Virus record (IMG/VR): IMGVR_UViG_3300021420_000004 | Span: 1-62,116 of that record | Strand: one strand, 5' to 3' | Source: a virus | Lineage: Duplodnaviria > Caudoviricetes | DNA length: 62,116 nucleotides | Part shown: in pieces, positions 31,190 through 54,930 of the stretch | How the letters are laid out: each line of letters begins with the position of its first letter | How positions within the stretch are numbered: the stretch's first letter is position 1 | The notes under the pieces: generated by a model | The model's database searches: none | Told to the model about the DNA's origin: nothing | What the model saw: the letters and a program-made list of their open reading frames with translations, nothing else | Program-made: the position numbers and the translations under genes

Positions 31190-32206
31190 ATGGCGTTACT
31201 AGACCTTCAGACCGAATTGCGCGGCGCGGTGCCGAAGCTCTCTTTCAACTACACGAAGACGCTCATCAATCGCGCCTACGCCGATCTCCGCCGTCAGAAC
31301 CTTTGGTCGTTCCAACTCTTCGAGGGCCAGTGGATCGCTCCGCCCCAGCTCGCCTCGACCGGCACCGTCACCACCATCCAAGGTTCCTCGTCTGTCACGT
31401 TTGATGCCACCGCTACTGCCGCCATTAACGCCCTCGCTTCTTCCCAGCCATACTCCCTCATCACCCAGCGTCAGTTCCGCATCGCCAGCGGTGGCATCTA
31501 TAATATCTGGGGATGGAATCCCTCAACTGGTGTGGCAACCCTCGACCGTTGGTACGGAGAACCGTCGCTGACCGGAGCCCAGTTCTCGATCTTCCAGTGC
31601 TACTACGTCCCCATCGTCGCCAATTCCCCGATTAAGGACTTCCGCACCTGGATCAGCGTCCGCGACATGCAGGATTTCATCGACCTCTACACCGAACGCT
31701 ACCAGATGCGCGATATTGACGTGCAAGACCCGCAGCGGACTTGGTACGGCATCCCTTCGGATGTGATCCCTTACCAAGATGACCAGAATCCAGCATCGCC
31801 AACCTACGGATCGCTGATGTTTTTCCTGTGGGGGATTCCTACCTTCAACGTGAACTATCAGCTCTATGGCATCCGCTTCGGGCCGGACCTCGCCAAGCCA
31901 ACCGACCAGCTTCCCTATGTGATCGGACAGGATGTCGTGATTGCCCGCGCCAAGTATTACGCCTACGAATGGGCCGAGGCGAACAAGGACCTCACCCCGC
32001 GTAACTCAGGGCCGGATTTCAAATTCCTGATGGGAGCGGCGAACAAGGAATACGACACTCTATTTCGTAAGTACCGTCAGATGGACCGGGATCGAGTTGA
32101 CAACTGGTTCGCCACGCGGACGCGATCCAACTACGCGAAGTGGCTTGCCTTCTATAATACTCAGGGCGGAGTCGCATCACCAGGATTCGCAGGAGTGCAA
32201 TCCTAA
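31190..32206 (+). CDS. head-tail adaptor-like protein
   Basis: LINRAY.DL....WSF; GIPS; DQLPY; position after the capsid module. Confidence 0.6.
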   Translation: MALLDLQTELRGAVPKLSFNYTKTLINRAYADLRRQNLWSFQLFEGQWIAPPQLASTGTVTTIQGSSSVTFDATATAAINALASSQPYSLITQRQFRIASGGIYNIWGWNPSTGVATLDRWYGEPSLTGAQFSIFQCYYVPIVANSPIKDFRTWISVRDMQDFIDLYTERYQMRDIDVQDPQRTWYGIPSDVIPYQDDQNPASPTYGSLMFFLWGIPTFNVNYQLYGIRFGPDLAKPTDQLPYVIGQDVVIARAKYYAYEWAEANKDLTPRNSGPDFKFLMGAANKEYDTLFRKYRQMDRDRVDNWFATRTRSNYAKWLAFYNTQGGVASPGFAGVQS

Positions 32207-33528
32207 TGCAGGCATACTCCAACTTCGCACAGCAAGGAGACGTTTCCGTAGTCACCTCCGGCCTCTCCTCGACCACCGTCGTCGAAGGCTCCTATCCCCT
32301 CTGCTTCGTCTCCGTCTACCTCCACGGCTCCGGCACTCTCGCGTCGATCTACTCCGACAATGGCGTCACTCCGCTCTCGAATCCCTTCACCGCGAACTCG
32401 AACGGTCAATTCACCTTCTACGCGGCGAACAATCGCTATGACGTGACCCTCTCGAACAACTCTGGGTCCGGTCCCGCGTCCCCGATCACGATCCCCGATA
32501 TCCTGCTCAACGATCCCGCAGGCGGCGGTGGCGTCGTCAATTCCGTCTTCGGTCGCAACGGCACCGTCATCGCCCAGACCGGAGACTATAACGTATCGCA
32601 GGTGACAGGCGCGGCTCCTTTAGCCTCGCCCACCTTCACGGGAATCCCCGCTGCCCCGACCGCGACCTTCGGCACTAACACAACGCAGCTTGCCACAACC
32701 GCCTTCGTGCAGGCTGCGTTGCCATCCATCCCGGTCACTTCAGTATTCGGTCGGACAGGAGTGGTCGTCGCGGTCAGCGGAGATTACAACGTCTCTCAGG
32801 TCACCGGGGCCGCGCCGCTTGCTTCCCCCGCGCTGACCGGAGTTCCAACCGCGCCGACGGCAGCCTTTGGCACGAACACGACTCAGCTTGCCACCTGCGC
32901 CTTCGTCCAAGCCAACCTCCCGTTTATCGGCGTGACCAGTTGGAACGCTCGCACGGGCGCGGTCACTCCTCAGACCGGCGATTATACCGTCAGCCAGGTG
33001 ACCGGCGCGGCTCCGCTTGCATCTCCCGCGCTCACTGGCGTCCCTACGGCACCGACCGCCGCGCTCGGAACCAGCACGACGCAGATCGCAACCTGCCAGT
33101 TCGTGCAGCAGACCGGGAACACTCCGGTTCTCTCGGCGTCCGTCACCCTGACCTCCGCTCAGCTCCTTGCGCTCCATGGGACGCCGATCACTCTCGTCCC
33201 AGCCCCCGGCGCGGGCGTCGTCATCTATCCGACGCAGATCGTCCTCGAATATAAATACGGCACTGTTGCGTACACGATCAACGGCGACTCCATCATCCTC
33301 GATTACAACAACGCTGGCTCGGCGCTCAAGCAGACCTTTGCCGAGACCGGATTCTTCGATCAAACCGCGTCTCAGATCGGATTCCTCGATGGAGTGGTGG
33401 CGCGGGCGGCATTGACGGTCGCAGCTAATCAACCGTTCACCATCGGCGCGTCCGGCGGATCGGATATGACTTTAGGAAACGGGACCTTGGTGGTATACAT
33501 CTACTATGCACTCATCACGTTGCAGTGA
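32206..33528 (+). CDS. tail/head fibre protein with three tandem repeats
   Basis: LASIYSD...SNPFTANSNGQF.FYA attachment-like domain; 3x SVFGRTG..GDY.VSQVTGAAPLASP..TG.PTAPTA..GT.TTQLAT. Confidence 0.75.
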   Translation: MQAYSNFAQQGDVSVVTSGLSSTTVVEGSYPLCFVSVYLHGSGTLASIYSDNGVTPLSNPFTANSNGQFTFYAANNRYDVTLSNNSGSGPASPITIPDILLNDPAGGGGVVNSVFGRNGTVIAQTGDYNVSQVTGAAPLASPTFTGIPAAPTATFGTNTTQLATTAFVQAALPSIPVTSVFGRTGVVVAVSGDYNVSQVTGAAPLASPALTGVPTAPTAAFGTNTTQLATCAFVQANLPFIGVTSWNARTGAVTPQTGDYTVSQVTGAAPLASPALTGVPTAPTAALGTSTTQIATCQFVQQTGNTPVLSASVTLTSAQLLALHGTPITLVPAPGAGVVIYPTQIVLEYKYGTVAYTINGDSIILDYNNAGSALKQTFAETGFFDQTASQIGFLDGVVARAALTVAANQPFTIGASGGSDMTLGNGTLVVYIYYALITLQ

Positions 33529-33975: not shown

Positions 33976-33997
33976 GCTCTGGCCGGAAGGACGAACA

Positions 33998-34737: not shown

Positions 34738-34748
34738 AAGGAGAAACC

Positions 34749-34922: not shown

Positions 34923-34923
34923 C

Positions 34924-35214: not shown

Positions 35215-35344
35215 ATGAAGCCCAATTACGCAAGGAGATCGCGCGATTGAAACGGCATCAACAAGTCGAAACGGATTCGGTGCTCCTGCTTGCCATAAAG
35301 TACCGCATCAAGGAACTGGAAAAAGAGTTGGAGAAATTGCAACA

Positions 35345-36656: not shown

Positions 36657-37012
36657 AAAGATTTCTGATCGCGCCACTATTGGTATGGTGTCTATCAATG
36701 ATCGCCTGCGAATCACTGGAACAGCAAGCCAGAGATACCGCAGCCGCTCTCGGCGGAGCTATCGCAGCCGCGCAGACACAGTATCAATCCGCTTGCACCA
36801 CCACTCCAACCGCTACGGCTTGCACGCTTATCAACAAGGCTGTCGCCGCGCAGAACGCTCTTGTTACCGCAGACGAAGCCTATTGTGGATTCAGCCCTGG
36901 AACGCCGCTTACTACCACCTGCACCCCGGTAAAGTCCGCTCAAGGGGCGCTGTCGGCTGCGATCTCAAACGCGACTCCATTCGTCACTGAACTCAAAGCG
37001 ATAATCCAGTAA
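36653..37012 (+). CDS. lipoprotein (spanin-like candidate)
   Basis: MKRFLIAPLLVWCLSMIA|C lipobox; follows the endolysin candidate. Confidence 0.65.
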   Translation: MKRFLIAPLLVWCLSMIACESLEQQARDTAAALGGAIAAAQTQYQSACTTTPTATACTLINKAVAAQNALVTADEAYCGFSPGTPLTTTCTPVKSAQGALSAAISNATPFVTELKAIIQ

Positions 37013-37022
37013 AGGAGAAACC

Positions 37023-37208
37023 ATGATTTCAATCGTTGAGCTTGTACTCTCGTTGTTATCAACCACGCTGGCGAACCTAAAGGGAACCGGCGCGGAGCAG
37101 GCTATCATCACCGACGTAGAAGCGGCTATCACCGCGCTGGAGAAAGTCCAAGGGACGCCGGTCACGATGGGTCAGTTGGAATCGCTGCGAGCGAAGGTGA
37201 CCTTCTGA
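37023..37208 (+). CDS. small amphipathic protein
   Basis: AAGGAG SD. Confidence 0.6.
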   Translation: MISIVELVLSLLSTTLANLKGTGAEQAIITDVEAAITALEKVQGTPVTMGQLESLRAKVTF

Positions 37209-37390
37209 TGGCGAACAAGGAAGGTTATCCCTGGTCCTGCGAGCGCGACGGGATGAACGTGAAGGATATCGCGGAGCGCCCGACCATCGGCCTGACGAAG
37301 ACTCACACCGAGCGCCACGACTCCGAGACCGGACGCAACGTCGAAGAAGAAGCGCAACCGGTGAATCAGACAGGCCGACGGATGCCCTGA
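37208..37390 (+). CDS. hypothetical protein
   Basis: TGATG coupling on both sides. Confidence 0.55.
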   Translation: MANKEGYPWSCERDGMNVKDIAERPTIGLTKTHTERHDSETGRNVEEEAQPVNQTGRRMP

Positions 37391-37557
37391 TGCCGATCTC
37401 GAAACATTACGGCGGTCACGGCTCCGAGGTGATGTCGTCGATGAAGAAGACCTACGACCCTGAGACGGCTAAACGGGTCTTCTACGCGACTGAGAACAAA
37501 CGTAAGAACGAGAAGAAGTCGAAGAAGAAGTCGAAGCGCAAGGGAGGCAGCAAGTAA
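37390..37557 (+). CDS. small Lys-rich phage protein (55 aa, not in ORF track)
   Basis: MPISKHYGGHGSEVMSSMKKTY...KRVFYATENK...KSKKKSKRK. Confidence 0.65.
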   Translation: MPISKHYGGHGSEVMSSMKKTYDPETAKRVFYATENKRKNEKKSKKKSKRKGGSK

Positions 37558-37560
37558 CGT

Positions 37561-39870
37561 GTGGCTACCCTCGTCCATAGCACTTACTTCCACTCCGTCG
37601 GCGGAAGCACGAATCCGGTTGTATCCCTGTCCGCCGAATCCACCGCAAGCAACTGGGTACTCGTTTATGTGATCGCTGACTTCGGTCAGCAATGGACGCT
37701 TATCAGCGATCAAGGGGAATCCTTCTCCCCGGTTGGCATAACCAGCGGTTCCGCTCCATTCAACGCGGTGTTCTGGCTGCTCGAATCCACTAAAACTTGT
37801 TCCTCGATTACCTTTACTAGCACCCACGGCGGGTCGAACAATCTTTATTACGCTGGCATATTTGAGGTCAGCGGCACCGGACTCCAGTACGTTAATCAGG
37901 GCGGGGTTAATGGCGGCGGTAGTCACAGCACACACGCCTTCGAGACCAGCCATTTCGCCACTAGCGTGCAACTCGCGGCGATGGCAGGCTCTGGTACGGG
38001 GACGACGATGTACTTCTCGGGATGCGCTGGCGGCGCGGCGTTCCCTCCTGCGTCGTTCTCGGTCACCGGGGGGTGGACGCTCGATCAGCTTACGGTCCTA
38101 TCTGACTATCAGATCGCCAGCGGATATTTGTCATCCTCTGGCACGCAGCAACCGACCTATAGCTGGACAGCAGCTTCAGCGCAGTTAGATGCGGCAGGGA
38201 TTTACATTCAGGACAGCGTGACCACCGTCGCCACAACCACCACCGTCGTCAGCAACGACGACCCCTCCTTCGTCGGCGCATCCGTCACTTTTACCGCCAC
38301 GGTCAACGGTCCCGGCGGAACCGGCTCTCCTACAGGCACCGTAACCTTCAACATCGACGGATCGAACGTCGCCACGGTCGCGGTCAGCGCGGTCTCGACC
38401 GGAGTCTCGCAGGCGCAGTACTCTACCTCGTCGCTCTCGCTTGGCATCCATCCGGTTCAGGCGTCGTATTCCGGCGACTCTCAATACCTCGCGTCTGTAT
38501 CCTCTCCCATCGACCAGATCGTCGTGCAGCAATGCCCGTTCCCGTTCGGCACTGCGCTTCAGGAATTAGCCAATCGACTATACGACTCGACGATGCAGTT
38601 CTGGTCGCCTGCCGAACTCGTCTACTATATGCAGGAGGCATTCCGCACTTGGAACGCGCTGACATCGTACTGGCGCGGAGACTTCACCTTTCCGACGCAG
38701 CAAGGAGTTGTGTTCTATGACATTACCAACGCTACCACGGCCCCAAACACTATCCGACCCCACACGATCACGGACCAATACCTGTATAACATTATCGAAT
38801 ATCACTTGCTTGAACCCGTGGTGGGGGCTGGACCTTGGACCGGATCGCTCCAGTTCGATATCGACGATATACTTAATGCCGTACAGCGTCGTGATAATGA
38901 AATCCTGGGCGTCACCGGATGCTCTGTCACTCACTTCACGACCGTAGCCGCGCCGGACCGCATTTACCTACCGAACACAACCTTGGAGATTCGCCGCGTG
39001 GCCTACGTCCCCGGCTCCGGCGAAGGCTCGACCGTCCCAATGTTCCAAGACGACACTTGGGGCATTGGCGCGTACCAGCCGTCCTACACGACCCAGCCGC
39101 CGGGGACGCCATCCACTTACCGTGTCTCGACTGAGCCGGTTCTATCATTCGACGCGGATGTCCCACCGCTCCCGGGGCAATATGATCTGGTGACAATCCA
39201 AGCGGGACCGCAACTGGTGACGACGCAGGCGAGCACCTTCACGATCCCTGATGATTGGACGTGGGTCCTGAAATGGGGAGCGCTGGCGGATCTACTCGGG
39301 AAGGAATCCAATGCGAAGGACTTACTTCGTGCCAAATATGCCGAGGGTCGATATAAGCAAGGTCTAGCTCTCTTATCCGCCGCCTCCGCCGTTCTCGCTA
39401 TTCGAGCGAATAATGCCCCTCTTCAAATCGACGCCCTCAAGTCCGCCGACCTCTACAATCCCACATGGCAAGGCCAAGCTCAAGGACCTCCAACCGAAGC
39501 CATGACCGCTGGGCTTAACCTGATCGTGGTGCCGCCGCCGGACGCTGGTCCTTATTCTATGACCGCGACCGTGGTCGAGAATGCTCCGGTGCCCGTCCTC
39601 GTCAGCGATTGCCTTCAGGTAACGCAGGATGTGTTCGATGTGATCCTCGACTACGCGCAGCACCTAGCGATGTTCAAATGCGGCGGAGAGGAATTCCTCG
39701 CCACGCAACCACTCCTGCAACGCTTCATGCAACTGGCTGCGTTATACTCGTCGAAGCTGGCCGAGCAAGGAGAGTTCACGAAGATTCTCTATGCGATTTC
39801 GCAGGACGAGGCGAATATGAATCCGCGATACACGCCGGACAGCGATCCAGCAGCGGGCGGTGACGAGTGA
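37561..39870 (+). CDS. tail protein: beta-rich N-terminal domain + Big_3-like Ig domain + adaptor-like C-terminus
   Basis: TTTTVVS..PSFVGASVTFTATV..PTGTVTF..H.V.ASYSGD..Y..S.S; then LANRLYD..FWSPAEL..Y. Confidence 0.7.
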   Translation: MATLVHSTYFHSVGGSTNPVVSLSAESTASNWVLVYVIADFGQQWTLISDQGESFSPVGITSGSAPFNAVFWLLESTKTCSSITFTSTHGGSNNLYYAGIFEVSGTGLQYVNQGGVNGGGSHSTHAFETSHFATSVQLAAMAGSGTGTTMYFSGCAGGAAFPPASFSVTGGWTLDQLTVLSDYQIASGYLSSSGTQQPTYSWTAASAQLDAAGIYIQDSVTTVATTTTVVSNDDPSFVGASVTFTATVNGPGGTGSPTGTVTFNIDGSNVATVAVSAVSTGVSQAQYSTSSLSLGIHPVQASYSGDSQYLASVSSPIDQIVVQQCPFPFGTALQELANRLYDSTMQFWSPAELVYYMQEAFRTWNALTSYWRGDFTFPTQQGVVFYDITNATTAPNTIRPHTITDQYLYNIIEYHLLEPVVGAGPWTGSLQFDIDDILNAVQRRDNEILGVTGCSVTHFTTVAAPDRIYLPNTTLEIRRVAYVPGSGEGSTVPMFQDDTWGIGAYQPSYTTQPPGTPSTYRVSTEPVLSFDADVPPLPGQYDLVTIQAGPQLVTTQASTFTIPDDWTWVLKWGALADLLGKESNAKDLLRAKYAEGRYKQGLALLSAASAVLAIRANNAPLQIDALKSADLYNPTWQGQAQGPPTEAMTAGLNLIVVPPPDAGPYSMTATVVENAPVPVLVSDCLQVTQDVFDVILDYAQHLAMFKCGGEEFLATQPLLQRFMQLAALYSSKLAEQGEFTKILYAISQDEANMNPRYTPDSDPAAGGDE

Positions 39871-45480: not shown

Positions 45481-45591
45481 AGTAGTATTCTTGGCACGAT
45501 AGAGATTCTTGCTGGGGTTCCTTACTGGGTTGGGACCCGCCACAAGGCTCATGGGCATCACGCTCATGGGCCTTTTGCTTTGGAGGAATAA

Positions 45592-46038
45592 ATGGCAACG
45601 CAGTCGGTTGAGATAGATGAGTATGGACCGGATTGGCCGTTAGGATTGATTGCGGTGGTTACGCCAGGGACGCCCGTGTCGATCATGTCGCTGGTCGATC
45701 CTTCGGCGGTCAACGCTCCGAACAATCCCACGCCGACCGGGACCGATACCGAGTTTGAATATTCCCCGTCGGTCCAGCAGATTGCGTTCCTCGCCGTCAA
45801 AGCAGGCGCGTCACATGGCACCCAGAATAACACGGGGAATATCTATATCGTCCGCAAGGGCGTGCAGGGCGCGGGCAACCGGGACGACTACGGCGCGATG
45901 GTCTGGGCGTTGGGACCGGGGCAGAATTTATTCCTATCGTCGGCTCCGTTGGAGCGGAACGTGTTCTCTCCTTATCGTTATTACATTGACGCTGACAATG
46001 CTGGGGATAGTTGCCTAGTGACGTTGCTAATCGCATGA
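45592..46038 (+). CDS. virion structural protein (putative)
   Basis: GGAGG SD; NTGNIYI..YYIDADNAGD. Confidence 0.65.
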   Translation: MATQSVEIDEYGPDWPLGLIAVVTPGTPVSIMSLVDPSAVNAPNNPTPTGTDTEFEYSPSVQQIAFLAVKAGASHGTQNNTGNIYIVRKGVQGAGNRDDYGAMVWALGPGQNLFLSSAPLERNVFSPYRYYIDADNAGDSCLVTLLIA

Positions 46039-49000
46039 GACATCTAAAGCTGATCCTCGCTCTCCTTCTTCTTTCGACGATGGCCGTCGGGCAATCTTCC
46101 AGCGGCGGCGGATCGGGCCTGCCAAACGCTACCGGAGTCAGCCAGTGTCTTCTGTCCTTGGCGAACGGGAGTCCCGCTTCCATCTGGGGATCGTGCTCGG
46201 GGTCGGCATCGACGAACTGGTCGGCGCTGGTTGCAGGGACCAACACCGCAGGTGGGAATTACCTCGTCGGAGCTGGCTCGGCGATCAACACGACTAGCAC
46301 CGGGACGATCAACGCCACGGGACTCAACTTTGGCGCAACCGGAATCACACTCGGCACCGCTCCGACCTCCAGCCAAGTCCTCGAATACAACGGGACGAAT
46401 ATCGTCGGACTCACCCTCGCCGCTGGTTCTGGCCTCAACTATTCCGCTGGGACCTTCAGCATCCCTGCGCTGGGCGTCACGAACGCGATGCTAGCGAATT
46501 CCGCAATCACCGTTCAAGGACAGTCTACATCGCTCGGCGGATCGGTCAATATCAACAGCGTAACCACCGCACATGGCGTGGCGTTGAATGAAGGCGCAGC
46601 GACTCAACTCGGCGGGACCGCCGTCGGCGCAACCGGAACCGTTCTGCTAGGCAACACGGGAGCTGACCCCAGCTTTGGCGCGGTTCCGAACGCCAATCTA
46701 GCTAACTCCACCATCACCATCGCAGGGACTTCCGTCGCGCTTGGCGGATCGACCAGCAGCTTGCCCTCACCAGGAGCCATCGGAGGCACAACGCCAGCGG
46801 CGGGCAACTTTACCACGCTCGGCGCTACTAGCAACCTCACCACCAATGTGACCGGCGGTGGAACCCAATGCCTACAAGCAAGCAACACAGGCGTCGTGAG
46901 TGGGACTGGTTCCGCGTGCGGCTCTGGCGGCGGGTCTCCGATCACAGTCAACGGCGGATCGGCGCTCACTGGAACGGTTAATCTTCAGAATGGATCAGCC
47001 GTCGATGGGATCACGATTAACGCATCGAACCCATCTGCGTCGAACGTGGCGTTCGCCATCAGTGGGTCGCTTACCAACGCAGGCCTCGCCAACTCCTCGA
47101 TCACCACATCTTGTACCTCCCCGCTCAACTGTAGCGGATCGGTCGCGCTTGGCGGGTCCAACACTTTCAATTTCATCACCACGCCGCTCACCGGACAGGG
47201 ACTCGTAGCGACCAACGGCAGCCAGCCTTCCTTCTCATCTCCCGGCGTGCAGGACAGCGTGAACTCCCCCGTCACATCCGCGTCCTATACTCTCGCCTGC
47301 GATTCCGGCACGGCCCTTGTGGATCGCGCCCACCTTGTTCGATTCCAATCCGGTGCGAGCACTCCGGTTGTTCCCTTGAGCACGGCGTCTGGCTGCACGG
47401 GGGGATTCGTCACCACGGTATTCGACGACGGCGCTGGCTCGCTGGTATTCGGTCGCACCTCCCCAGACACCTTCAGCGTCTTCAATGGCTCAACCGCGTC
47501 TGACGGACAGACCTCGTTCACGCTGACCAACGGCCAATACGCCACCCTCACCCAAGGCGCATCCGGCATCTGGGAGGTCCGGGTAACCTCCGCCGGAACC
47601 GGACTCGCAGGCTCTATTTCGACGAACCAAGTAGCCTATGCGACTGGGACTAATACCGTCGGTGGATTCTCTCTTCCCGTCGGCGATTGGGTAGCAGGTA
47701 CATCCACGAATCCCATCGCGCAAGCGAAGACTTGGGTCGATATCCGTGACGCCAATCCCGCCATCGCCGGAGACTTCTGTGACGCTCTCAACTATCTCGG
47801 CAATCTCTATGGCACCGGCGTGTGGATCGACGCGACCAATCCCGGCGGATACCTCGACACAACCGGAGGGATCGACCGCGTGTATTGCACGCATGGGCCA
47901 TGGGGCGCGATCCCTCCGGCGACCTTCACCAACTACACCAACCTCGGCGCGGGATTCCAGTTCAATATCAAACTGGGGAACTATCAAATCGTTAGCGGTG
48001 ACGCATGGTGGATTCCCTCGGGCGCGAATTTCGTCTACGGCGCACCGCAATCCGCGTCAGCGTCTCCCTTGAACGGGACGGTTATCCTCCCTTGCTATGG
48101 ATCGACGAACGCGAGCAGTCTGATTACCACCTGCACCAATAACAGTACGCTCGGCGCGGGAGCGACTATTCCGGCGGTAACCACAACACCGAATATCGCC
48201 GTGGGTGGGCCATTCATCGCCAACACGGTTTGCGATTCAACCACCGCCAATGCCGATAACGGATTCAGTAGTTGTGGAACGATTAACGGTTACAACGGTT
48301 CAACGGTGACAGTTAGCTGCACTGCGGCCAATCCTGCGGTCTGTACAGCTAGCGGAGGAACCCCATTCGTTTCTGGGGACGCCGGGGGATGGTTTATAAG
48401 TTGTGCCACAAGTGGTAGTCCGTCAGCGGCTTGCCCAAGTCTCACCAACGCAGCATATCAATATGTTTCCAGTTATCAGAGTAGTACGCAAATCACTCTT
48501 GCTGGAACTTGGGCGGGTGCGACTGCGACCGCGCTTCAAGCATGGACTATTATTCGTCCGAACGAATGGTGCTTCCTATGCGTCGGCATGATCGGGCAGC
48601 AGAACAACTCCTTCGCGCACGAGTTTAGGGATTTCCGCGTGGATACCGAAGGCGTGCCGCATGGCATCGGGATCTATTCGCAGAACGCGCAGGAGCGGGT
48701 GGCATTCTTGGATGTCCCAGTCAGCCTCAACTTCGCCATCTATAACACCGAGCCGATCACAACGAATCCCGGCTCGGATTCCTGCTGGGTGTTCGACCGC
48801 AACTACGCCACGTCCTCCCTGGGGTCGAACAATGCTGGGCCGAATCACCCGTCGATGACCCTCGGCGAATGTGATGTCACCAACGGCCAAGGGACGACCA
48901 GAGCCACCGCTCAGTCCAATCCTCCCATCGGCGGCGTGGCGTCCATGTGGTCTTACGGTCGCGGCAACGGGACGGACTTCCAGAACGGCATGTGGGACCC

Positions 49001-51773
49001 TGGCACGTTCAAGGGGATCGCCAACAATCCATTCCAGACCTGCATGTGGGTCGATGGCACGCAATCCTTTTGGAATGGCGGGACGCACTGCGAAGACGCC
49101 AGCATCGGCGTGGACGTGGGTGAGAATAATAAAACGCTCGGCGTTCACATCAATGACTTCCACGCGTCCAACTTCACCAGCGACACGGTTATCAAGTTCG
49201 GCTCGAACACACAGCAGAGCCAAGCGCATGTGATCGAGGTACAGACTTCGGGGAATACCCTGCTGAGTGATGTCAACGGGGCGGGGACGAATGGATGCGG
49301 ACTATCCTCGTGCTCCTACGCTTCCACTTCCGGCGATCTGATCTTGCAGGATTATGTGCAGGCGACCACGACGGGATCGACGTTTGGGACGCTCATCACG
49401 CCCAGTCTGACGATCAACGGCGCAACGAGCGGAACCGGGACCATCGGCGCTACAGCGACAGGAGGGACACTAGAGCTGAACGGCACGACAGCGGAGATCA
49501 CTTCATCCGGCGGCGCAACCTTTGCCAGCCTTACCGACACCGGCGTCACCGGATCAACGCAGTGCTTACAGGCCAATTCTTCGGGAGCCATTAGCGGCAC
49601 CGGAGCCGGATGCGGAAGCGGCGGATCGGTGACCAACTTCAGCGCGGGGAACCTATCGCCGCTGTTTACGACCAGCGTAGCGACATCGACGACCACGCCC
49701 GCGCTGACGTTCACCGCAAGCAACGCCGCGTCAGGGACCTTCCTTGGCAATAACACAAACGCCAGCGCCGCGCCCGCTTATGCGACACTGAGCGCGATCA
49801 ATCCTCAGACGACTACGTATCAGGTACTTGCAGCGGATTTCGCAGCATACAAGACTATCGCCGTAGCGTCGGGATCATTCACGATCACTCTCGTCGCCAG
49901 TGGAAGCCAGCCAGCGGCGGGGCAGTACATCAACGTCGTGAATTACGGCACTGGCACGGTGACCATTGCTCGGAGCGGACAGAGCATCAATGGCGCAAAC
50001 AGTTCCATCGTATTGAGTCCCGGCACGTCGATCAACTCCACCGGAGCGACGATCTGGTCGGACGGTACGAACTACGTCGCAGCAGTCGATGAGGATAACG
50101 CAGGCACGGGAACGGTTACCAGCGTAGCCACAACTTCCCCAATCACCGGAGGGACGTTTACCACCAGTGGGACGATTGCCTGTGCGACCTGTACTACGAG
50201 TGCGGCGGCAATCACGAATAACGTGATCCCAAAGGGAAGCGGCGGGGCACAAGGTATCGCCAACTCCTCAATCACGGACAACGGAACCACTATCGCCAGT
50301 GCAGAACAGATCGCCATCACGCAGACATCTGGGACATCAACAGGGTTCTCGCTCACCAATTCGACTGCCGCGACCAGTTCCGTCGCGCAGAGTTCCCCCT
50401 TCGACATCCGTACCGGGCAAACATGGCTGAATTATTTCCCGTCTACAAGTGGAGCATTCATCGCCGCCGCAAGTCAGGCTGATTGCTGGAGCCACCAAGT
50501 TACCGAGACGAATGGAACGAACGGGTCGAGTATCTACGTCCTGCTTCACAACAGCGCGGCGGATAATTGCCAAGGGAGTCCAGCCAACTCCTATCTTCAA
50601 ACTCCATTTGAATATAACTGGGGTGTGCAGACGCAGAGCCTCGCCCAACCTTCAACACCAGCCATTACTTGTTCTCCTACTTGCGCCTCAAGTCATACTT
50701 GGACCTATGAAGTCGCGGCCTGCACGGGCCCTGGCTGCACTCAGCCATCTGTCACAGGAAGCACTACGACCGGAGTTGCAACTCTGAGCACGAGCAGCTA
50801 CAACATCATCACTTGGTCGGTGACGCCGAATGCGGATTATTACAAGCTCTATCGCACGGTCTCTGGAGGAACACCATCGACGCTCGGCATAATCGCTGTC
50901 ATTCCATCCGGCTCAACCGCTTCAGGCGCGAGTTGCAGTTCGAGTACGTGCGTGGTCAACGATGAGGCGCTTGCTGGAGATACGACCACAGCGCAAGCCT
51001 ACAACTCTTCTGGCCAAGTTTATGTCGGCACCGGACCAGCAGTCGGCGGAGGCACGGGCGGCGGTATGTTTGGAACTGGCGGCACGGTTCCGAGCACACT
51101 AAGCGCGACTGCGGCAGGGTGGTATGTGGATGCTAACGATCTTTTCCATGTCGTAAACAGCACGACGGATGAGGGCGTTGCGCCTATTGGATGCTTATCA
51201 AAATGCTCCTTCGTGGTAGGAGCGCCGGGAATTTCTCCCGGTGAGAGCGTGGTCACAGGTGTAGCGGCAGGCAACACGGCTCTCTATACCCACTGGTATC
51301 GTTTTTACAATGATGTCACTCGCAAGCTAGGAACTACGTGCTTGACGGGCGTACAAACCGTTCTTGCCAGCGATCACCTTCATGCCGGAGTTTACTCCTT
51401 CAATGGGTCCAGCATCAGCGCAGCTCCGGTGTGGGATTGTGGTCAGCAATCAACCGCAACTGCCGGACAGGTTGCGAACACTTCCGTAACCGCATATACG
51501 ATGAGTCCGGGGTATTACTATATTGCTTTTTGTGCGGACACAGCCGCAACCTTCATCCCCTATGTCCTGCTCAACACCACAGCAGCAGCCAGTGGAGCAG
51601 CTACTTTCGGCGGCGGCGGCAGTCAAACGGCGCACAATATCGGCGTAGATTCGACCGATGTCTGCACAGCCGCCGCCGCAGCCTTACCATCCAGTCCGGC
51701 TATCGCCAATATCTCATTCACGGCTGGAACTACCGTGGTAGATGTGCCTTACATCGTGAGCGTGAATCCATGA
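46035..51773 (+). CDS. giant fibre/spike-like protein with signal peptide (about 1912 aa)
   Basis: MRHLKLILALLLLSTMAVG|Q; Thr/Ser/Gly-rich fibre repeats (VTNAMLANS.IT), many Cys pairs, beta-helix-like middle. Confidence 0.75.
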   Translation: MRHLKLILALLLLSTMAVGQSSSGGGSGLPNATGVSQCLLSLANGSPASIWGSCSGSASTNWSALVAGTNTAGGNYLVGAGSAINTTSTGTINATGLNFGATGITLGTAPTSSQVLEYNGTNIVGLTLAAGSGLNYSAGTFSIPALGVTNAMLANSAITVQGQSTSLGGSVNINSVTTAHGVALNEGAATQLGGTAVGATGTVLLGNTGADPSFGAVPNANLANSTITIAGTSVALGGSTSSLPSPGAIGGTTPAAGNFTTLGATSNLTTNVTGGGTQCLQASNTGVVSGTGSACGSGGGSPITVNGGSALTGTVNLQNGSAVDGITINASNPSASNVAFAISGSLTNAGLANSSITTSCTSPLNCSGSVALGGSNTFNFITTPLTGQGLVATNGSQPSFSSPGVQDSVNSPVTSASYTLACDSGTALVDRAHLVRFQSGASTPVVPLSTASGCTGGFVTTVFDDGAGSLVFGRTSPDTFSVFNGSTASDGQTSFTLTNGQYATLTQGASGIWEVRVTSAGTGLAGSISTNQVAYATGTNTVGGFSLPVGDWVAGTSTNPIAQAKTWVDIRDANPAIAGDFCDALNYLGNLYGTGVWIDATNPGGYLDTTGGIDRVYCTHGPWGAIPPATFTNYTNLGAGFQFNIKLGNYQIVSGDAWWIPSGANFVYGAPQSASASPLNGTVILPCYGSTNASSLITTCTNNSTLGAGATIPAVTTTPNIAVGGPFIANTVCDSTTANADNGFSSCGTINGYNGSTVTVSCTAANPAVCTASGGTPFVSGDAGGWFISCATSGSPSAACPSLTNAAYQYVSSYQSSTQITLAGTWAGATATALQAWTIIRPNEWCFLCVGMIGQQNNSFAHEFRDFRVDTEGVPHGIGIYSQNAQERVAFLDVPVSLNFAIYNTEPITTNPGSDSCWVFDRNYATSSLGSNNAGPNHPSMTLGECDVTNGQGTTRATAQSNPPIGGVASMWSYGRGNGTDFQNGMWDPGTFKGIANNPFQTCMWVDGTQSFWNGGTHCEDASIGVDVGENNKTLGVHINDFHASNFTSDTVIKFGSNTQQSQAHVIEVQTSGNTLLSDVNGAGTNGCGLSSCSYASTSGDLILQDYVQATTTGSTFGTLITPSLTINGATSGTGTIGATATGGTLELNGTTAEITSSGGATFASLTDTGVTGSTQCLQANSSGAISGTGAGCGSGGSVTNFSAGNLSPLFTTSVATSTTTPALTFTASNAASGTFLGNNTNASAAPAYATLSAINPQTTTYQVLAADFAAYKTIAVASGSFTITLVASGSQPAAGQYINVVNYGTGTVTIARSGQSINGANSSIVLSPGTSINSTGATIWSDGTNYVAAVDEDNAGTGTVTSVATTSPITGGTFTTSGTIACATCTTSAAAITNNVIPKGSGGAQGIANSSITDNGTTIASAEQIAITQTSGTSTGFSLTNSTAATSSVAQSSPFDIRTGQTWLNYFPSTSGAFIAAASQADCWSHQVTETNGTNGSSIYVLLHNSAADNCQGSPANSYLQTPFEYNWGVQTQSLAQPSTPAITCSPTCASSHTWTYEVAACTGPGCTQPSVTGSTTTGVATLSTSSYNIITWSVTPNADYYKLYRTVSGGTPSTLGIIAVIPSGSTASGASCSSSTCVVNDEALAGDTTTAQAYNSSGQVYVGTGPAVGGGTGGGMFGTGGTVPSTLSATAAGWYVDANDLFHVVNSTTDEGVAPIGCLSKCSFVVGAPGISPGESVVTGVAAGNTALYTHWYRFYNDVTRKLGTTCLTGVQTVLASDHLHAGVYSFNGSSISAAPVWDCGQQSTATAGQVANTSVTAYTMSPGYYYIAFCADTAATFIPYVLLNTTAAASGAATFGGGGSQTAHNIGVDSTDVCTAAAAALPSSPAIANISFTAGTTVVDVPYIVSVNP

Positions 51774-52822
51774 AAAGGCTTTTATTGCTCTTGTTCATCT
51801 TGCCTTGTTTTGCTCCTATAGCTCACGGGCAAAACTATCAGGGATGTCTGTTTGACGGTAATTCGGGTGCATTGAGTCTGGGCGGCGGCTGGACTTGTTA
51901 CAACGGCTCCTCGCAATTCAGTTTGACTGGGGTGTTGCCAGCTTTTCTAAATCCTCTTACGGCTGGCCACTCTCTTGTCGCTTGGTGCGGGAACGGCGCG
52001 AACGTGGCTGGGGCCACAGAATCCATAAGCGACAACGCAGGGAACACTTGGGATTGGGACACTATTCTCTATTCCGTCGCGGTCAGTGGATCGAAGACGG
52101 TGAACTATACCGCAGGCTGTACGGTCAGTGGAGGGACCGGGCCGGGTGGGGCGACTTGCAGCTCGACGATCAGCAGCGGCTCGGTCACGGCGATTACGGT
52201 CACTGCGCCCGGTATCTACTTTCATAGCGGCGGGACTGTCACCATCAGCGTTCCGAGTGGTTCCGGCCAAACATTTACGGCGACGATGGGCAATGCGACT
52301 TGGAACAGCCCGGCCACTAGTCAGTACACGTTGGGATGGGTTGTCAACTCCTTGGGCAAGGCATCTGGTTATCAAGTGACCTGTAGCAATACAGCAGGCT
52401 CCAATGACGGCGCGGTTATGGAAGTCGGTTACGGCGGAGGAGTAAGCCGAGGAATAGAAACCGGAGCATTGTCTCAGGCGCAAACCAATGGCGCTACAAC
52501 TGCTGCCGGAGGAACTTGTCCTTGTGCGGCGTTCAGCGGAAGTATCACCACCACAATCAACGGAGATTTGATTCTGGCCGCCATCAATAGCATCAACGGC
52601 GATTTGGATACATGGACATCGGGATTCTCGCACAATGTTTATAGTCTGACCGGGCCACAAACCACGGCAGGAGTGCAGAATTTTCAGTGGTCAGATACAA
52701 CAGCCAGCGACCTATATTTTACAGGAGTGATGGCTTTGGAGCCGTCCATCCCAGCGGGCAGCACTGTGTTGACTGGAACCACTGCGTTAATCAATTCAGT
52801 AAAGTTGGGTGCCTCTCAGTGA
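51770..52822 (+). CDS. signal-peptide-bearing beta-rich protein
   Basis: MKRLLLLLFILPCFAPIAHG|Q; G.VTAITVT.PG..; ATGA coupling. Confidence 0.7.
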   Translation: MKRLLLLLFILPCFAPIAHGQNYQGCLFDGNSGALSLGGGWTCYNGSSQFSLTGVLPAFLNPLTAGHSLVAWCGNGANVAGATESISDNAGNTWDWDTILYSVAVSGSKTVNYTAGCTVSGGTGPGGATCSSTISSGSVTAITVTAPGIYFHSGGTVTISVPSGSGQTFTATMGNATWNSPATSQYTLGWVVNSLGKASGYQVTCSNTAGSNDGAVMEVGYGGGVSRGIETGALSQAQTNGATTAAGGTCPCAAFSGSITTTINGDLILAAINSINGDLDTWTSGFSHNVYSLTGPQTTAGVQNFQWSDTTASDLYFTGVMALEPSIPAGSTVLTGTTALINSVKLGASQ

Positions 52823-54930
52823 GACATATATTTGCGGTGTTGTTGCTGTGTGGTGCGGCTTTGGCCGCGACCACTTATATTTCGCAGTCCGGCGGGAGCG
52901 TGAGCTGTGCGGGCGGAACACAAACGACGATCTCTCTCGCAACCTTCAATGCGAGTTCTCCGAGCGGCGGCAACACTTACATTTTCTGCGGTAACTTGAC
53001 GAGCGTGATTGCCCCAGCGGGATCGGGCGGGACAACGGGCAATCTGGTGACGCTTCAATTTGATTCTGCCTCTCATGCCAATGTAAGCATGTCGGCTGGA
53101 AATTGCCCAATCAGCGGAATTATCCAGCTTGGGAGTTGGTCCTACTACACCCTAAACGGAAACAGCACCGGAGCCGATGACGGGGATTTGACTGGCACCA
53201 TTCGTTGCATGGCGCAAGGCACCCCAGCGGCCACAATCACAAACATCACCTGCTCGGCAGGAACAGCGACTGTCACTGGGCCGTCCGCGTTTGGCTTCAC
53301 GCCGGGAAACGCAGCGACAACACCCAACCTCGTCATCTCAGGGAACAGCGTCTCCGCCTACAACACCACGATTACGGTCCTTGGCAACTCCAATGTTCAA
53401 ACCGGGACAAGTTTCACTTTCACTCCTAGTGGAGGATGTGCAGGGACGGGCAGCGGGGGTACGGTCGGAGTACTTTGTCCCAGCGGAAGTTTTTGTACAG
53501 ATACTACGGCGGCGACGGGGCTTTATCTCTCAGGGGGATCGAATTACACCGTTGAAAATATGAAGGTCTATTCGCTCTATGTACACACGAGCGTGGCCGA
53601 TTTGTTCAACCAGCCCTATCCTTACGCGGTCCAGTGGCTCGGAAACAACATCACGATCACCGGAAATATCTTCAAGGATTTCGGCTGGATCATTGGCGAA
53701 GGGAACACGATCACCTTCTCAAATAATCAGTGCATCAACTTTGACCATTGCTTTGCTTCCGGGGTGACGGCCCACAACGTGAACTACGGCCCTTACTACA
53801 TTTTCGACAATACCATGTCCCATGCGGTGACTTGGGACACTGGGACTACGGGAGCCTACCACCATGACGGTGTGCATCTCTTCGCTTACGTGAGCGGGGC
53901 TTACGATGCGACTACGTTTATCCATGACGTTTATATGTACAACAATCACTTCTCTGGAAATTGGGGGCCAATCAACGTCACAGCCCACATCTTTCAGGAA
54001 TACAACATCAAGAACGTCTGGATTTTTAACAACCTTTTCGACTGCTCGGCCAACCAGTGCGATTCCGGCATCGTCTACGGCGGAATCAATATGCACTTCT
54101 GGAACAATACGCTATTCGGGATTACCGAGGCAGGCTGCATTGCCAACGTGACCGCCTATGGCTACTCGTCGGGCGAGTGCAACAATGGGGCACTAACCGT
54201 CACAGGTAGCACGACGCTTTCCCAGCAGAACAATGTATGGACAACCGGCGAAATCCTTCCAGAGATCACCGCGACGGACGAAGGCGGCAGTAATCCCACG
54301 ACCATTGCAGCCTTGAGTAACAACGTCTACATGAATGGCGGCGGCACGGGGGGCAATCCTTGGAACTGGCAAGGCACGCCAAAGTCCAGCATAAGCGCAT
54401 GGAACACGGCGAGCGGAGAGACGAATGACGTTTATTCCGCGACGAACACGGTCAATTCAGGGACGTTGACGCTTCAGGCTGGCTCACCCGCTATCGGCGC
54501 GGGAGTGAATCTCCATTCCACTTGCAACGGGCAACCGAATCCAGGTCTGGGGGCATTGTGCTCAGATTATAACGGTAACTCTAGACCATCATCTGGAGCG
54601 TGGGACGCTGGAGCTATCAATTCTTCCAATACGGTAACAACTCCTCCAGCTCCCGCAACTATGTTCGTTCAACTCAATCAGCAACCAAAAGTCGAACTAG
54701 CTTGGGATGCCTCAACCAGTCAGGGAGTGAATTACAGCATCTTCCGCTCTGTCGCAGGTTCTCCGTTCAAGCTCATCAAGACAGGATTAAGCGATCTGTC
54801 GTGGACTGATACGGATGTGATTCGAGGCACGAAATATACATACGAGAATCAAGCGTATTATCCGCCTCCGTGCAACAATAATTGTAAGTCGGTGATGTCG
54901 GATCAGGTTAACGTGAACTGTTGCCAGTGA
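52819..54930 (+). CDS. signal-peptide-bearing parallel beta-helix protein with C-terminal Fn3-like domain (depolymerase/adhesin-like)
   Basis: MRHIFAVLLLCGAALA|A; HHDGVH, YNN.F, FNN.F, WNNT; LQAGSPAIGAG..D..GN.RP..AWDAGA; V.LAWDAS..Y.IFRS. Confidence 0.75.
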   Translation: MRHIFAVLLLCGAALAATTYISQSGGSVSCAGGTQTTISLATFNASSPSGGNTYIFCGNLTSVIAPAGSGGTTGNLVTLQFDSASHANVSMSAGNCPISGIIQLGSWSYYTLNGNSTGADDGDLTGTIRCMAQGTPAATITNITCSAGTATVTGPSAFGFTPGNAATTPNLVISGNSVSAYNTTITVLGNSNVQTGTSFTFTPSGGCAGTGSGGTVGVLCPSGSFCTDTTAATGLYLSGGSNYTVENMKVYSLYVHTSVADLFNQPYPYAVQWLGNNITITGNIFKDFGWIIGEGNTITFSNNQCINFDHCFASGVTAHNVNYGPYYIFDNTMSHAVTWDTGTTGAYHHDGVHLFAYVSGAYDATTFIHDVYMYNNHFSGNWGPINVTAHIFQEYNIKNVWIFNNLFDCSANQCDSGIVYGGINMHFWNNTLFGITEAGCIANVTAYGYSSGECNNGALTVTGSTTLSQQNNVWTTGEILPEITATDEGGSNPTTIAALSNNVYMNGGGTGGNPWNWQGTPKSSISAWNTASGETNDVYSATNTVNSGTLTLQAGSPAIGAGVNLHSTCNGQPNPGLGALCSDYNGNSRPSSGAWDAGAINSSNTVTTPPAPATMFVQLNQQPKVELAWDASTSQGVNYSIFRSVAGSPFKLIKTGLSDLSWTDTDVIRGTKYTYENQAYYPPPCNNNCKSVMSDQVNVNCCQ

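Follow-up and report, generated by a model that had tools for sequence, protein, structure and literature searches.

Predicted signal peptides and paired cysteines in three fiber- and spike-like proteins of a podovirus-like soil phage

To our knowledge, tailed phages assemble in the cytoplasm in every case studied, and the known tailspikes, which lack signal peptides, fold there and have an N-terminal particle-binding domain. The window analyzed here, a stretch of 62,116 nucleotides, is a complete 62-kb podovirus-like genome that encodes three adjacent proteins with predicted signal peptides and many cysteines, which raises the question of where these proteins fold and where they are used. The host of this soil phage may belong to the Acidobacteriota, judging by the closest relatives in culture alone (TerL 29.5% identical). 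The three genes, encoding P0001, P0002 and P0003, follow a core gene as listed below.

45592..46038, + strand: 148-aa core gene without a signal peptide, homologue of Tunturi_1 gp33, coupled to the three-gene cassette
46035..51773, + strand: P0001 gene, 1912 aa by translation
51770..52822, + strand: P0002 gene, 350 aa by translation
52819..54930, + strand: P0003 gene, 703 aa by translation, with a GTG start rather than ATG

Each gene overlaps the next by four bases (ATGA between the 148-aa gene and P0001 and between P0001 and P0002, GTGA between P0002 and P0003), which together with the translations bears out the initial annotation of three translationally coupled genes of 1912, 350 and 703 aa. 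No Shine-Dalgarno-like purine run was found within 20 bases 5' of the start of P0001, P0002 or P0003, whereas such a run does precede several genes neighboring the cassette. The cassette accounts for 14% of the genome and sits in the late structural operon. It is flanked on the 5' side by homologues of Tunturi_1 gp31 ('virion structural protein') and gp33 ('tail fiber protein') and on the 3' side by homologues of Tunturi_1 gp35 and gp36 ('lytic tail protein'), confirming the surroundings that had been described for it. A consensus scan of the sigma-70 type, with non-sigma-70 promoters outside its reach, found no promoter- or terminator-like site belonging to the cassette on the + strand and left unsupported the candidate view that the cassette is a moron equipped with a separate promoter and terminator. 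Signal-bearing genes come after the 148-aa core gene in L003, L004 and L005 as they do in the window, and the equivalent slot in the Tunturi_1 genome is occupied by an acetyltransferase gene. The lysis genes of the window include holin-like genes and a lipoprotein (spanin-like) gene.

Signal peptides were called with a heuristic rule of our own requiring a net positive n-region, an uncharged window of 10 residues with a mean Kyte-Doolittle value of at least 1.9, and a small -3/-1 site. The rule and its cleavage sites are crude, and the cysteine parity counts given below depend on them. All three coupled starts (3/3) pass as Sec-type, in agreement with the signal peptide claimed earlier for each protein.

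46035..46091, + strand: P0001 signal peptide MRHLKLILALLLLSTMAVG, then Q; heuristic rule; the ATG overlaps the stop of the 148-aa gene (ATGA)
At the start of 51770..52822, + strand: P0002 signal peptide MKRLLLLLFILPCFAPIAHG, then Q; heuristic rule
At the start of 52819..54930, + strand: P0003 signal peptide MRHIFAVLLLCGAALA; heuristic rule

Genome-wide, 3 of 79 greedy ORFs taken from the longest start pass the rule, P0001 among them; the other two are a 384-aa ORF (9352-10506, - strand) and a 68-aa ORF, maybe spurious. By reading, the leaders (MRHLKL..., MKRLLL... and MRHIFA...) have no twin arginine and so are not of the Tat type, and there is no lipobox cysteine at +1 in any of the three proteins. 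The leader cysteines of P0002 and P0003 come after P or L, not G, A or S.

Signals were found to be kept in homologues and not replaced by downstream starts, the check that had been proposed for conservation. A signal was present in 24 of 32 P0001 homologues by the strict rule and in 28 of 32 by a looser rule, P0015 being doubtful among the latter. The sole homologue found for P0002 (55% identical) is also signal-bearing. Eight homologues of P0003 were found, and all six of those put through the rule pass; by reading, P0010 has a lipoprotein-type signal and P0012 none. Among relatives of the central domain of P0001, four of six pass, P0047 reads as having a signal peptide and the sixth is N-terminally truncated. 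Dozens of divergent homologues repeat the n-h-c layout, again with small residues at -3/-1 and with Gln at +1. Alignment A5 shows a domain that is collinear throughout except for the signal peptide, which is cleanly added as 19 extra residues at the N-terminus. A signal-less isoform made from a downstream start found no support, the internal Met16 of P0001 not being conserved in L003 or L004.

The cultured Tunturiibacter phages Tunturi_1 and Tunturi_4 have fiber or spike genes with signals as well. Examination of 14 late proteins of Tunturi_1 revealed that the long variable gp12, gp13, gp14 and gp17 are all signal-bearing, and that the long signal-less gp30, gp31, gp36 and gp37 are core genes common to the window. 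None of 12 tail or fiber proteins of Tunturi_3, on the same host strain, is signal-bearing, which rules out the signal as a universal trait of Tunturiibacter phages (Tunturi_5 was left out of this comparison). In a search of open-access papers and bioRxiv, no description of a fiber or spike of a tailed phage with a signal peptide was found.

The abundance of cysteines asserted in the initial annotation was also confirmed. P0001, P0002 and P0003 contain 44, 9 and 21 respectively, a total of 74 in 2965 residues (2.5%) compared with 41 in 7211 residues (0.57%) of 15 other late proteins and with 1.5% in all other greedy ORFs (Fisher p 2e-4). The mature counts are all even at 44, 8 and 20. The 44 cysteines of P0001, all mature, fall into 22 close pairs, each made of successive cysteines (permutation p 5e-5), with a median gap of 13.5 residues inside pairs versus 65 between pairs. 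Pair alternation was also found in P0003 (permutation p = 0.011) and was not detected in P0002 (permutation p 0.63). The cysteine and signal statistics draw on homologues that are not independent samples, and with that reservation even counts were obtained for 54 of 60 signal-bearing proteins (binomial p 5e-11) and, in an ORF survey of 19 loci, for 30 of 32 signal-bearing versus 58 of 110 signal-less proteins (Fisher p 9e-6), with median cysteine contents of 2.0% and 0.69% respectively (Mann-Whitney p 7e-11). Consecutive close pairs occur in L003, L004, L006 and Tunturi_1 gp12, gp13, gp14 and gp17. Signal-less relatives that have the conserved fiber module described below are cysteine-poor, with 3 in P0026 and 1-5 in L011, L012 and L014-L016. 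Since the signals are conserved and the cysteines even and paired, export and disulfide folding are well supported, though indirectly, and the three proteins probably fold outside the cytoplasm.

P0001 resembles a giant fiber or spike. Behind the signal peptide come, in order, a Ser/Gly linker (QSSSGGGS), an N-terminal region of ~540 aa rich in Thr, Ser, Gly and Ala, a central domain modeled as a beta-helix, a conserved fiber module and a variable C-terminal part, and T, G, S and A make up 51% of its residues.

47652..49634, + strand: P0001 central domain, residues 540-1200, right-handed beta-helix in the AlphaFold2 model
49752..50159, + strand: P0001 conserved fiber module, residues 1240-1375, AINPQT...WSDGTNY, common to many long fiber-like proteins

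The fiber-type repeats attributed to P0001 were upheld in part, in that two copies of a 22-residue motif are present (at residues 278 and 1176) and fiber modules are shared with other proteins, but self-BLAST detected no internal repeat. The AlphaFold2 model of the center has a pLDDT of 53.7 and a pTM of 0.62, and Foldseek returned nothing for it at E<=1e-3. VIA-align matched this low-confidence model to the alginate epimerase/lyase 8ja4 at Z 22.2 (rmsd 3.7, 314 aligned), to CBA120 TSP2 at Z 20.9 and to the tailspike of Sf6 at Z 20.5. The central domain has 20 relatives among 1.84e9 representatives. The fiber module was found both in signal-bearing cysteine-rich and in signal-less cysteine-poor proteins. 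P0001-type proteins show tip swapping, and in four related phages with a 1507-aa tail protein 68-72% identical the signal peptide and QSSSGG are the only well-conserved N-terminal stretch, there being no conserved mature N-terminus beyond QSSSGG. Pfam searches with six P0001 homologues gave no useful family, and neither P0001 nor P0003 had a tblastn match in 50,697 phage records.

A beta-helix was likewise modeled for P0003.

52867..54438, + strand: P0003 right-handed beta-helix, ~residues 17-540, AlphaFold2 model
54463..54618, + strand: P0003 choice-of-anchor Q domain, residues 549-600, NCBIfam NF041518, E 4.5e-6

The P0003 model (pLDDT 60.7, pTM 0.68) gave 20 Foldseek matches to the PDB at E<=1e-3, the best being the Klebsiella K1 capsule lyase 7w1c (2.4e-7), and one match in BFVD at the same threshold. 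The best VIA-align match was the Vibrio cholerae RbmB polysaccharide lyase (Z 26.6, rmsd 2.6, 298 aligned, model range 14-507). In the model the helix begins directly behind the signal peptide with no N-terminal particle-binding domain; the aligned part of the matched tailspikes begins at chain residues 159-331. The NF041518 match scored 26.8 bits, above the cut-off of 25. Residues 582-680 resemble part of a signal-bearing 985-aa L006 protein by blastp and are followed by a cysteine-rich tail. No relative of P0003 was found in the IMG/VR scan. Pfam contained no family for any of the three proteins at E<=0.01; P0001 and P0002 matched nothing in Pfam, PHROGs or NCBIfam, and P0003 matched only the choice-of-anchor Q domain. 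A PHROG 'head closure' match of P0002 (E 0.009) was set aside, as no stretch passes alone. Sequence searches of the PDB with the three proteins were empty or non-significant, and the ESM Atlas gave sub-threshold leads only (0.78-0.83). Both beta-helix models are of low to middling confidence and, as modeled, P0003 and the center of P0001 are right-handed beta-helices like those of polysaccharide lyases and tailspikes. The predicted folds fit the earlier alternative suggestion of depolymerases, and no Pfam or PHROG family backs an enzyme assignment of the three proteins.

We infer the export, cleavage, disulfides, enzyme activity and destination of the three proteins as follows. They would be made late from the structural operon through translational coupling, and the unfolded chains would be threaded through SecYEG and cut by signal peptidase I, probably just before Gln. 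Folding would take place in the periplasm, where a DsbA-type oxidase would join consecutive cysteines into a predicted 22 local disulfides in P0001, up to 10 in P0003 and up to 4 in P0002, and the beta-helix domains of P0001 and P0003 would be of the kind that binds and cuts polysaccharides. We regard these shared steps (late expression, Sec export, cleavage, periplasmic disulfide folding and beta-helix domains in two of the proteins) as highly probable. For what follows we lean slightly, over loading onto virions, toward the three being free or envelope-associated enzymes released at lysis, to which we assign a probability of roughly 0.4. The proteins would then stay out of the particle, build up in the periplasm and escape together with the progeny once the envelope is opened by the lysis genes (holin, endolysin and spanin-like). 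Either free or bound to envelope or matrix, and stabilized by disulfides, they would bind and cut polysaccharides and so clear exopolysaccharide or surface glycan from the dying cell and from cells nearby, so that progeny would not be trapped and could reach new hosts.

Several known systems resemble the cassette in part. Tailspikes and depolymerases (P22, Sf6, HK620, CBA120 TSPs, Klebsiella phages) have a beta-helix such as that predicted for P0003 (Z 21-23) and the P0001 center (Z 20-21), and like the cassette are encoded in a podovirus-like structural module and are hypervariable between related phages. Unlike those proteins, the three have Sec-type leaders and paired cysteines, and P0003 has no N-terminal domain ahead of the helix. 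RbmB, the best structural match of P0003, is a secreted matrix lyase encoded by a bacterial chromosomal gene, whereas P0003 is encoded by a phage late gene. The tailspike-like beta-helix enzyme WceF of Pantoea stewartii is exported by Tat and acts on the producer's own exopolysaccharide (PMC7949094); Tat exports folded proteins, whereas the three carry leaders of the Sec type and are predicted to form many disulfides. The PDB sequence search detected no similarity to secreted enzymes of the RbmB/WceF type. The MAT fibers of Bdellovibrio bacteriovorus (PMC10769870) resemble P0001 in combining a signal peptide with a long fiber of phage-fiber modules and a variable tip. Those fibers, however, are cellular proteins of the predator surface with one invariant ~130-aa beta-rich domain right after the signal, whereas the mature N-termini of P0001-type proteins are unconserved; in seven relatives with signals, a shared N-domain does follow the leader immediately.

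The pIII protein of Ff phages is a receptor-binding virion protein that has a Sec signal and acquires its disulfide-bonded fold in the periplasm, prior to incorporation into the particle. Ff phages build their virions at the envelope and extrude them through it, whereas tailed phages assemble in the cytoplasm and are released by lysis, and pIII has no sequence or fold relation to the three proteins. Small exported outer-membrane protein or lipoprotein genes, such as lambda lom and T5 llp, are present in phage tail regions. Phage products that use host Sec and wait outside the cytoplasm until lysis include fOg44 Lys44 and the SAR endolysins (PMC6116005). Lys44, the SAR endolysins, Lom and Llp are small lysis or exclusion proteins, in contrast to the fiber and beta-helix proteins of 350-1912 aa encoded here.

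The principal alternative is that the three are receptor-binding fibers or spikes which, after export and disulfide folding, join fiber-less cytoplasmic particles at lysis. The two would meet only after rupture of the inner membrane, and assembly would be finished in the joined compartments or extracellularly; addition of the P22 tailspike to heads in vitro reportedly shows such a terminal step to be workable. This was the inference of the initial annotation, of which the export and periplasmic oxidative folding are favored by the conserved signals and paired cysteines and the loading has evidence both ways. Loading is favored, and the proposed free step opposed, by a cassette of this size lying inside the structural operon, coupled to a core gene and lacking any promoter- or terminator-like site peculiar to it, by the receptor-binding-fiber layout of P0001 (long stalk, beta-helix, swappable tip), and by the use of one N-terminal fiber domain with and without a signal in relatives. 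That domain belongs to the ordinary fiber of the window phage.

32206..33528, + strand: signal-less tail fiber, 440 aa, 3 Cys, N-terminal domain at residues 2-104; comparison gene

The gene comes after a gp11-like tail protein gene, and its product is 75% identical to the L004 counterpart. The N-domain was found directly behind the signal in Tunturi_1 gp12, L006_597, P0039, P0027, P0033, P0023 and P0047 (E<=4.5e-7), always N-terminal, and the repeat motif of the same fiber is present in the signal-bearing P0032 and P0035, both in favor of loading. Consistent with loading are also the signal-bearing fiber genes of L009, L013 and L017, which directly follow tape-measure and J-like siphovirus tail genes, and the division in Tunturi_1 between long variable proteins with signals and long core proteins without. 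PHROGs searched with eight signal-bearing proteins (four of Tunturi_1, three of Tunturi_4, one of L004) gave only two matches, to C-terminal stretches in two of the eight. Complex prediction for the gp11-like tail protein with three signal-less fiber N-domains scored 0.00 in a run without controls and counts neither way. In addition, a Sec signal alone does not carry a protein across the outer membrane, a further point against the free step. Building into the particle is opposed by the helix of P0003 starting at ~residue 17 with no particle-binding domain, by the unconserved mature N-termini of P0001-type proteins in phages with conserved tails, and by the separate signal-less fiber of the window phage; post-lysis assembly would also compete with dilution, and in the Tunturi paper 'signal peptide', 'mass spectrometry' and 'structural protein' do not occur. 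The acetyltransferase in the Tunturi_1 slot and the absence of signals from the 12 Tunturi_3 proteins argue against building-in within the cytoplasm. We consider loading slightly less probable than release as free enzymes, and about as probable as loading the wider proposal that a set of soil phages, among them podo- and siphoviruses cultured on Acidobacteriota, complete their virions extracytoplasmically at lysis with Sec-routed, disulfide-stapled receptor-binding fibers and spikes.

Much less probable is display on the infected cell, in which envelope-held fibers would mask or destroy the phage receptor or act as adhesins like the MAT fibers, with superinfection exclusion or shielding of progeny from debris as proposed effects. 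The predicted beta-helices could destroy a glycan receptor, and the MAT fibers offer a precedent for Sec-exported, phage-like trimeric surface fibers (PMC10769870). By reading, however, neither an outer-membrane anchor nor a lipobox nor a C-terminal sorting signal is visible at the ends of the three proteins, and expression is from a late operon, not an early or lysogenic unit. The envelope-displayed exclusion proteins of phages known to us are also small. Slightly less probable again is that the proteins are not exported, their N-termini remaining uncleaved or serving another role such as membrane-proximal assembly, with folding in the cytoplasm and cysteines that bind metal or pair only after release. 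Such a view would accord with the cytoplasmic assembly of every tailed phage studied, but it is opposed by the recurrence of the n-h-c layout with Gln at +1 in divergent homologues, by the clean addition of the signal in alignment A5, and by the coincidence of the signal with high, even and pairwise-spaced cysteines where signal-less homologues are cysteine-poor.

Enzymes released at lysis are the reading of the three proteins toward which we lean slightly. Fiber- and spike-like proteins marked for export and disulfide folding probably depart from the known way in which tailed-phage fibers are made, as far as sequence can indicate, and the signal-bearing set spans several phage lineages and includes two distinct lineages of cultured isolates. 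The availability of Tunturi_1, Tunturi_2 and Tunturi_4 in culture, together with their hosts, makes the question directly testable. If the proteins belong to the virion, they would represent a so far undescribed extracytoplasmic last step in tailed-phage assembly; if they do not, 14-20% of these phage genomes would be devoted to an exported arsenal against surface sugars. Either outcome bears on phage life in the exopolysaccharide-rich, acidic soil habitat of Acidobacteria, on the recognition of receptor-binding proteins in viral metagenomes and on where very stable depolymerases may be sought.

The virus record is complete at 62,116 bases with direct terminal repeats, and its features include the following.

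Features of the phage genome and of the three-gene cassette
20648-22804: large terminase
23545-25653: portal, P22-like (weak match)
28329-28835, +: homing-endonuclease-like gene immediately preceding that for the major head protein (weak LAGLIDADG match in Pfam; HNH endonuclease match in PHROG, E 4e-22)
28838-30076: major head protein
32206-33528, +: tail fibre of 440 aa without a signal peptide (strong PHROG fibre matches)
33538-37012, +: lysis region, with multi-pass membrane proteins (33538-33975 and 33998-34522) and a 146-aa protein common to related locus L004
37561-39870 and 39867-44390, +: two large tail-module proteins with Big_3_5 and PA14 domains
45592-46038, +: 148-aa gene, homologue of Tunturi_1 gp33
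46035-51773, +: P0001, first gene of the cassette
51770-52822, +: P0002, second gene
52819-54930, +: P0003, third gene
Opposite strand: family A DNA polymerase

The closest cultured relatives are the Tunturiibacter phages Tunturi_1 and Tunturi_2 (TerL identity 29.5% over 92%), which are described as 63-kb podoviruses of an Acidobacteriota host (PMC11924767). Comparison with Tunturi_1 by tblastn revealed collinear terminase, portal, head protein, gp11 'tail protein', gp30, gp31, gp33, gp35 and gp36. The two large tail-module proteins carry sugar-binding-type extras missing in their Tunturi_1 homologues, an N-terminal 334 residues with Big_3_5 in one and a PA14 insert (approximately residues 205-426) in the other, and these extras could themselves be host-recognition parts. 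An internal start in the lysis-region ORF at 36467-37012 (+) yields a lipoprotein leader, MKRFLIAPLLVWCLSMIAC, a spanin-like feature.

Translation of the cassette confirmed three ORFs of 1912, 350 and 703 aa, as called in the initial annotation, with GTG as the start of the third. All three starts show 4-base overlaps with a stop (ATGA, ATGA and GTGA) and none has a Shine-Dalgarno-like run 5' of it, for which reason translational coupling of the trio to the 148-aa gene is the simplest reading. The cassette makes up 14% of the genome and lies within the late operon; a scan of the + strand revealed no promoter- or terminator-like site belonging to it. The gap just 5' of the 148-aa gene holds a strong hairpin (45544-45574, +; stem of 13 bp, 7 of them GC, with a T-rich tail after it) that may serve in termination, attenuation or processing, in which case the 148-aa gene would form a separate unit together with the cassette and the ejection-like genes.

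Signal peptides were scored with a simple heuristic of our own (positive n-region, uncharged hydrophobic window and small residues at -3/-1), and all three coupled starts passed, in agreement with the leaders first noticed in the sequence. Genome-wide, 3 of 79 greedy ORF calls using the longest start passed, the P0001 gene among them; the two outside the trio were a doubtful 68-aa ORF and a 384-aa ORF on the minus strand. The latter (9352-10506, -), located in the replication or early arm and encoded on the other strand from the structural genes, has the leader MKRIPLLILVWMSLASLAVG followed by Gln and an FG-GAP repeat match (E 7e-7).

It had been proposed that the leaders would be an artefact of start choice if homologues started downstream; instead, the homologues keep the leader. 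P0003 has eight homologues among 5.8 billion proteins, and all six put through the rule passed, a count that leaves out P0010, with a lipoprotein signal by reading, and P0012, with no recognisable signal. The single homologue found for P0002 has a leader. P0001 has 32 homologues (1051-3346 aa), every one on a contig of at most 104 kb, with leaders in 24 by the strict rule and 28 by a looser rule that includes the doubtful P0015; P0025, P0026, P0042 and P0044 have none. Four of six relatives of the P0001 central domain passed, P0047 has a signal peptide by reading and P0048 is N-truncated. Gln directly follows the predicted cleavage site, after Ala or Gly, in the great majority of signal-bearing homologues, which would leave pyroglutamate at the N-terminus; this preference may be a trait of the host lineage.

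Four IMG/VR loci (L003-L006), found via the 1507-aa tail protein (53-72% identity), all contain a large signal-bearing, Cys-rich ORF 3' of the gp33-like gene, directly after it in L003, L004 and L005 and with one gene between in L006. Classic leaders were present on 5 of 14 late proteins examined in Tunturi_1 (gp12, 13, 14, 16 and 17), including gp14, annotated 'tail spike protein', and gp17, 'virion structural protein'. Tunturi_4, a siphovirus of a different host species, has leaders on gp113 and gp114. Its gp111 'tail fiber protein' (36076-39171 of the Tunturi_4 sequence, L024) gains a classic signal peptide, MNRISKAIGLCALALSVGSSYG, and 12 mature Cys from an in-frame start upstream of that annotated at 36433, so the deposited start may be too short. 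None of 12 tail or fibre proteins of Tunturi_3, a podovirus of the same host strain as Tunturi_1, has a leader; the trait, as judged from these sequences, is therefore frequent on that host and not obligatory. A GTDB contig labelled as an Actinomycetota MAG (L007, 1-21722) switches character near 7800, where ABC-transporter-like genes give way to a fibre C-terminus and three signal-bearing genes, one of which is homologous to P0003 (50% identity to the query alignment); by eye only, the ORF at 19700 is terminase-like. L007 represents either a prophage or a contig that was mis-binned or is chimeric.

The abundance of cysteine noted initially held up, at 2.5% in the trio compared with 0.57% in 15 other late proteins and 1.5% in all other ORF calls. 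Mature Cys counts are all even (44, 8 and 20 in P0001, P0002 and P0003). P0001 contains 22 consecutive close pairs, with a median gap of 13.5 residues within and 65 between pairs, an alternation whose sum was reached by gap shuffling in fewer than 1 in 20,000 trials; alternation was also found in P0003 (p = 0.011) and was absent from P0002 (p = 0.63, gap shuffle). The pair pattern recurs in signal-bearing proteins of L003, L004, L005 and L006 and in Tunturi_1 gp12, 13, 14 and 17, and 54 of the 60 signal-bearing proteins that have any mature Cys have an even number. A survey of + strand ORFs of at least 250 aa at 19 loci yielded 164 ORFs, 32 signal-bearing and 132 signal-less, with median Cys of 2.0% and 0.69% respectively (Mann-Whitney p 7e-11), for sequences that are related to one another and cleavage sites that are our own guesses. 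Even counts occurred in 30 of 32 signal-bearing and 58 of 110 signal-less proteins (Fisher p 9e-6), one of the two odd cases being a mis-set cleavage site and P0002 being left out because its leader lies 145 codons inside the longest ORF.

The conserved fibre module of P0001 (residues 1240-1375) also occurs in short (431-541 aa) signal-less fibres of L011, L012, L014, L015 and L016 (matches at ∼9.5-11 kb), phage contigs quite different from the other set. These leaderless relatives are Cys-poor, with 1-5 Cys in the five contigs and 3 in P0026; the module is evidently exchanged between fibres of the cytoplasmic and the exported type. Consecutive cysteines are paired when a DsbA-type oxidase acts on a chain leaving the Sec channel. 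Of the indirect evidence for export, the strongest is the link of leader with paired cysteines.

The P0003 model, from a 9-sequence alignment, is a right-handed beta-helix (pLDDT 60.7, pTM 0.68). Foldseek matched it to 20 PDB chains at E≤1e-3, and at the top were a capsule lyase of Klebsiella K1, enzymes of GH110 and GH136, and phage depolymerases. In VIA-align the RbmB polysaccharide lyase of Vibrio cholerae scored Z 26.6 (298 residues aligned, rmsd 2.6), and several tailspikes scored Z 21-23. The helix begins at approximately residue 17, directly after the leader, whereas the matched tailspikes align from chain residues 159-331; P0003 would thus lack an N-terminal particle-binding domain. 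Its C-terminus comprises a choice-of-anchor Q domain and a stretch resembling a signal-bearing protein from L006.

The fibre-type repeats ascribed to P0001 are the least secure element: self-BLAST found no internal repeat, and just one 22-residue motif occurs twice. However, P0001 is 51% Thr/Gly/Ser/Ala and has modules in common with long fibre-like proteins. For residues 540-1200, just 20 relatives turned up among 1.84 billion representatives, and the model was poor (pLDDT 53.7). Foldseek returned no significant match for it; VIA-align nevertheless scored an alginate epimerase/lyase at Z 22.2 and the tailspikes of CBA120 and Sf6 at Z 20-21. Based on these Z scores a beta-helix is placed in the P0001 layout, which reads as leader, Ser/Gly linker, stalk of ∼540 residues, beta-helix, conserved module and a C-terminal part that differs from the closest homologues. 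For P0002, searches of Pfam, PHROGs, PDB sequences and the ESM Atlas yielded no fold assignment.

Overall, the trio is probably exported and disulfide-folded (probability approximately 0.85), and inference supports the mechanism well as far as export. The last step is proposed tentatively, at somewhat below even odds: the proteins would act as enzymes and binders that are free or attached to envelope or matrix, let out at lysis. The weight given to each reading of this step follows from the points for and against loading onto virions at lysis, a possible outcome of slightly lower probability. Loading is favoured by the size of the cassette and its place in the late operon with no regulatory site of its own on the + strand, and by the N-terminal domain of the signal-less fibre, which also stands directly behind a leader in Tunturi_1 gp12, the L006 protein L006_597 and five database proteins; this shared domain is N-terminal in every case and the leader is a clean 19-residue addition in the alignment. 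The signal-less fibre gene itself comes after the gp11-like tail protein gene, and in three other loci signal-bearing fibre genes come after tape-measure and J-like tail genes.

Against loading, P0003 has no N-terminal adaptor, and P0001-type N-termini in four phages with 68-72% identical tail protein conserve only the leader and QSSSGG, the opposite of what is expected for a docking domain. Moreover, the phage has an ordinary fibre of its own, 75% identical to that of L004, and Tunturi_1 has an acetyltransferase in the cassette slot with its signal-bearing genes elsewhere. Display on the cell surface or receptor masking is improbable, and that the proteins are not exported at all is the least probable reading. 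Release at lysis as enzymes and binders is, by a narrow margin, the reading we prefer.

The trio proteins are alike in fold to tailspike depolymerases and secreted bacterial matrix lyases. Filamentous-phage pIII resembles them in export route. So do the Bdellovibrio MAT fibres (PMC10769870) and Sec-exported endolysins (PMC6116005), and WceF is likewise exported, although by the Tat route (PMC7949094). Neither WceF nor the MAT fibres, the endolysins or pIII represent a fibre or spike of a tailed phage that carries a Sec leader; no published report of such a leader was found in the open-access literature, and the text of the Tunturi paper (PMC11924767) does not mention signal peptides. The trio with its leaders is a real, conserved feature, and the question is testable in cultured phages.
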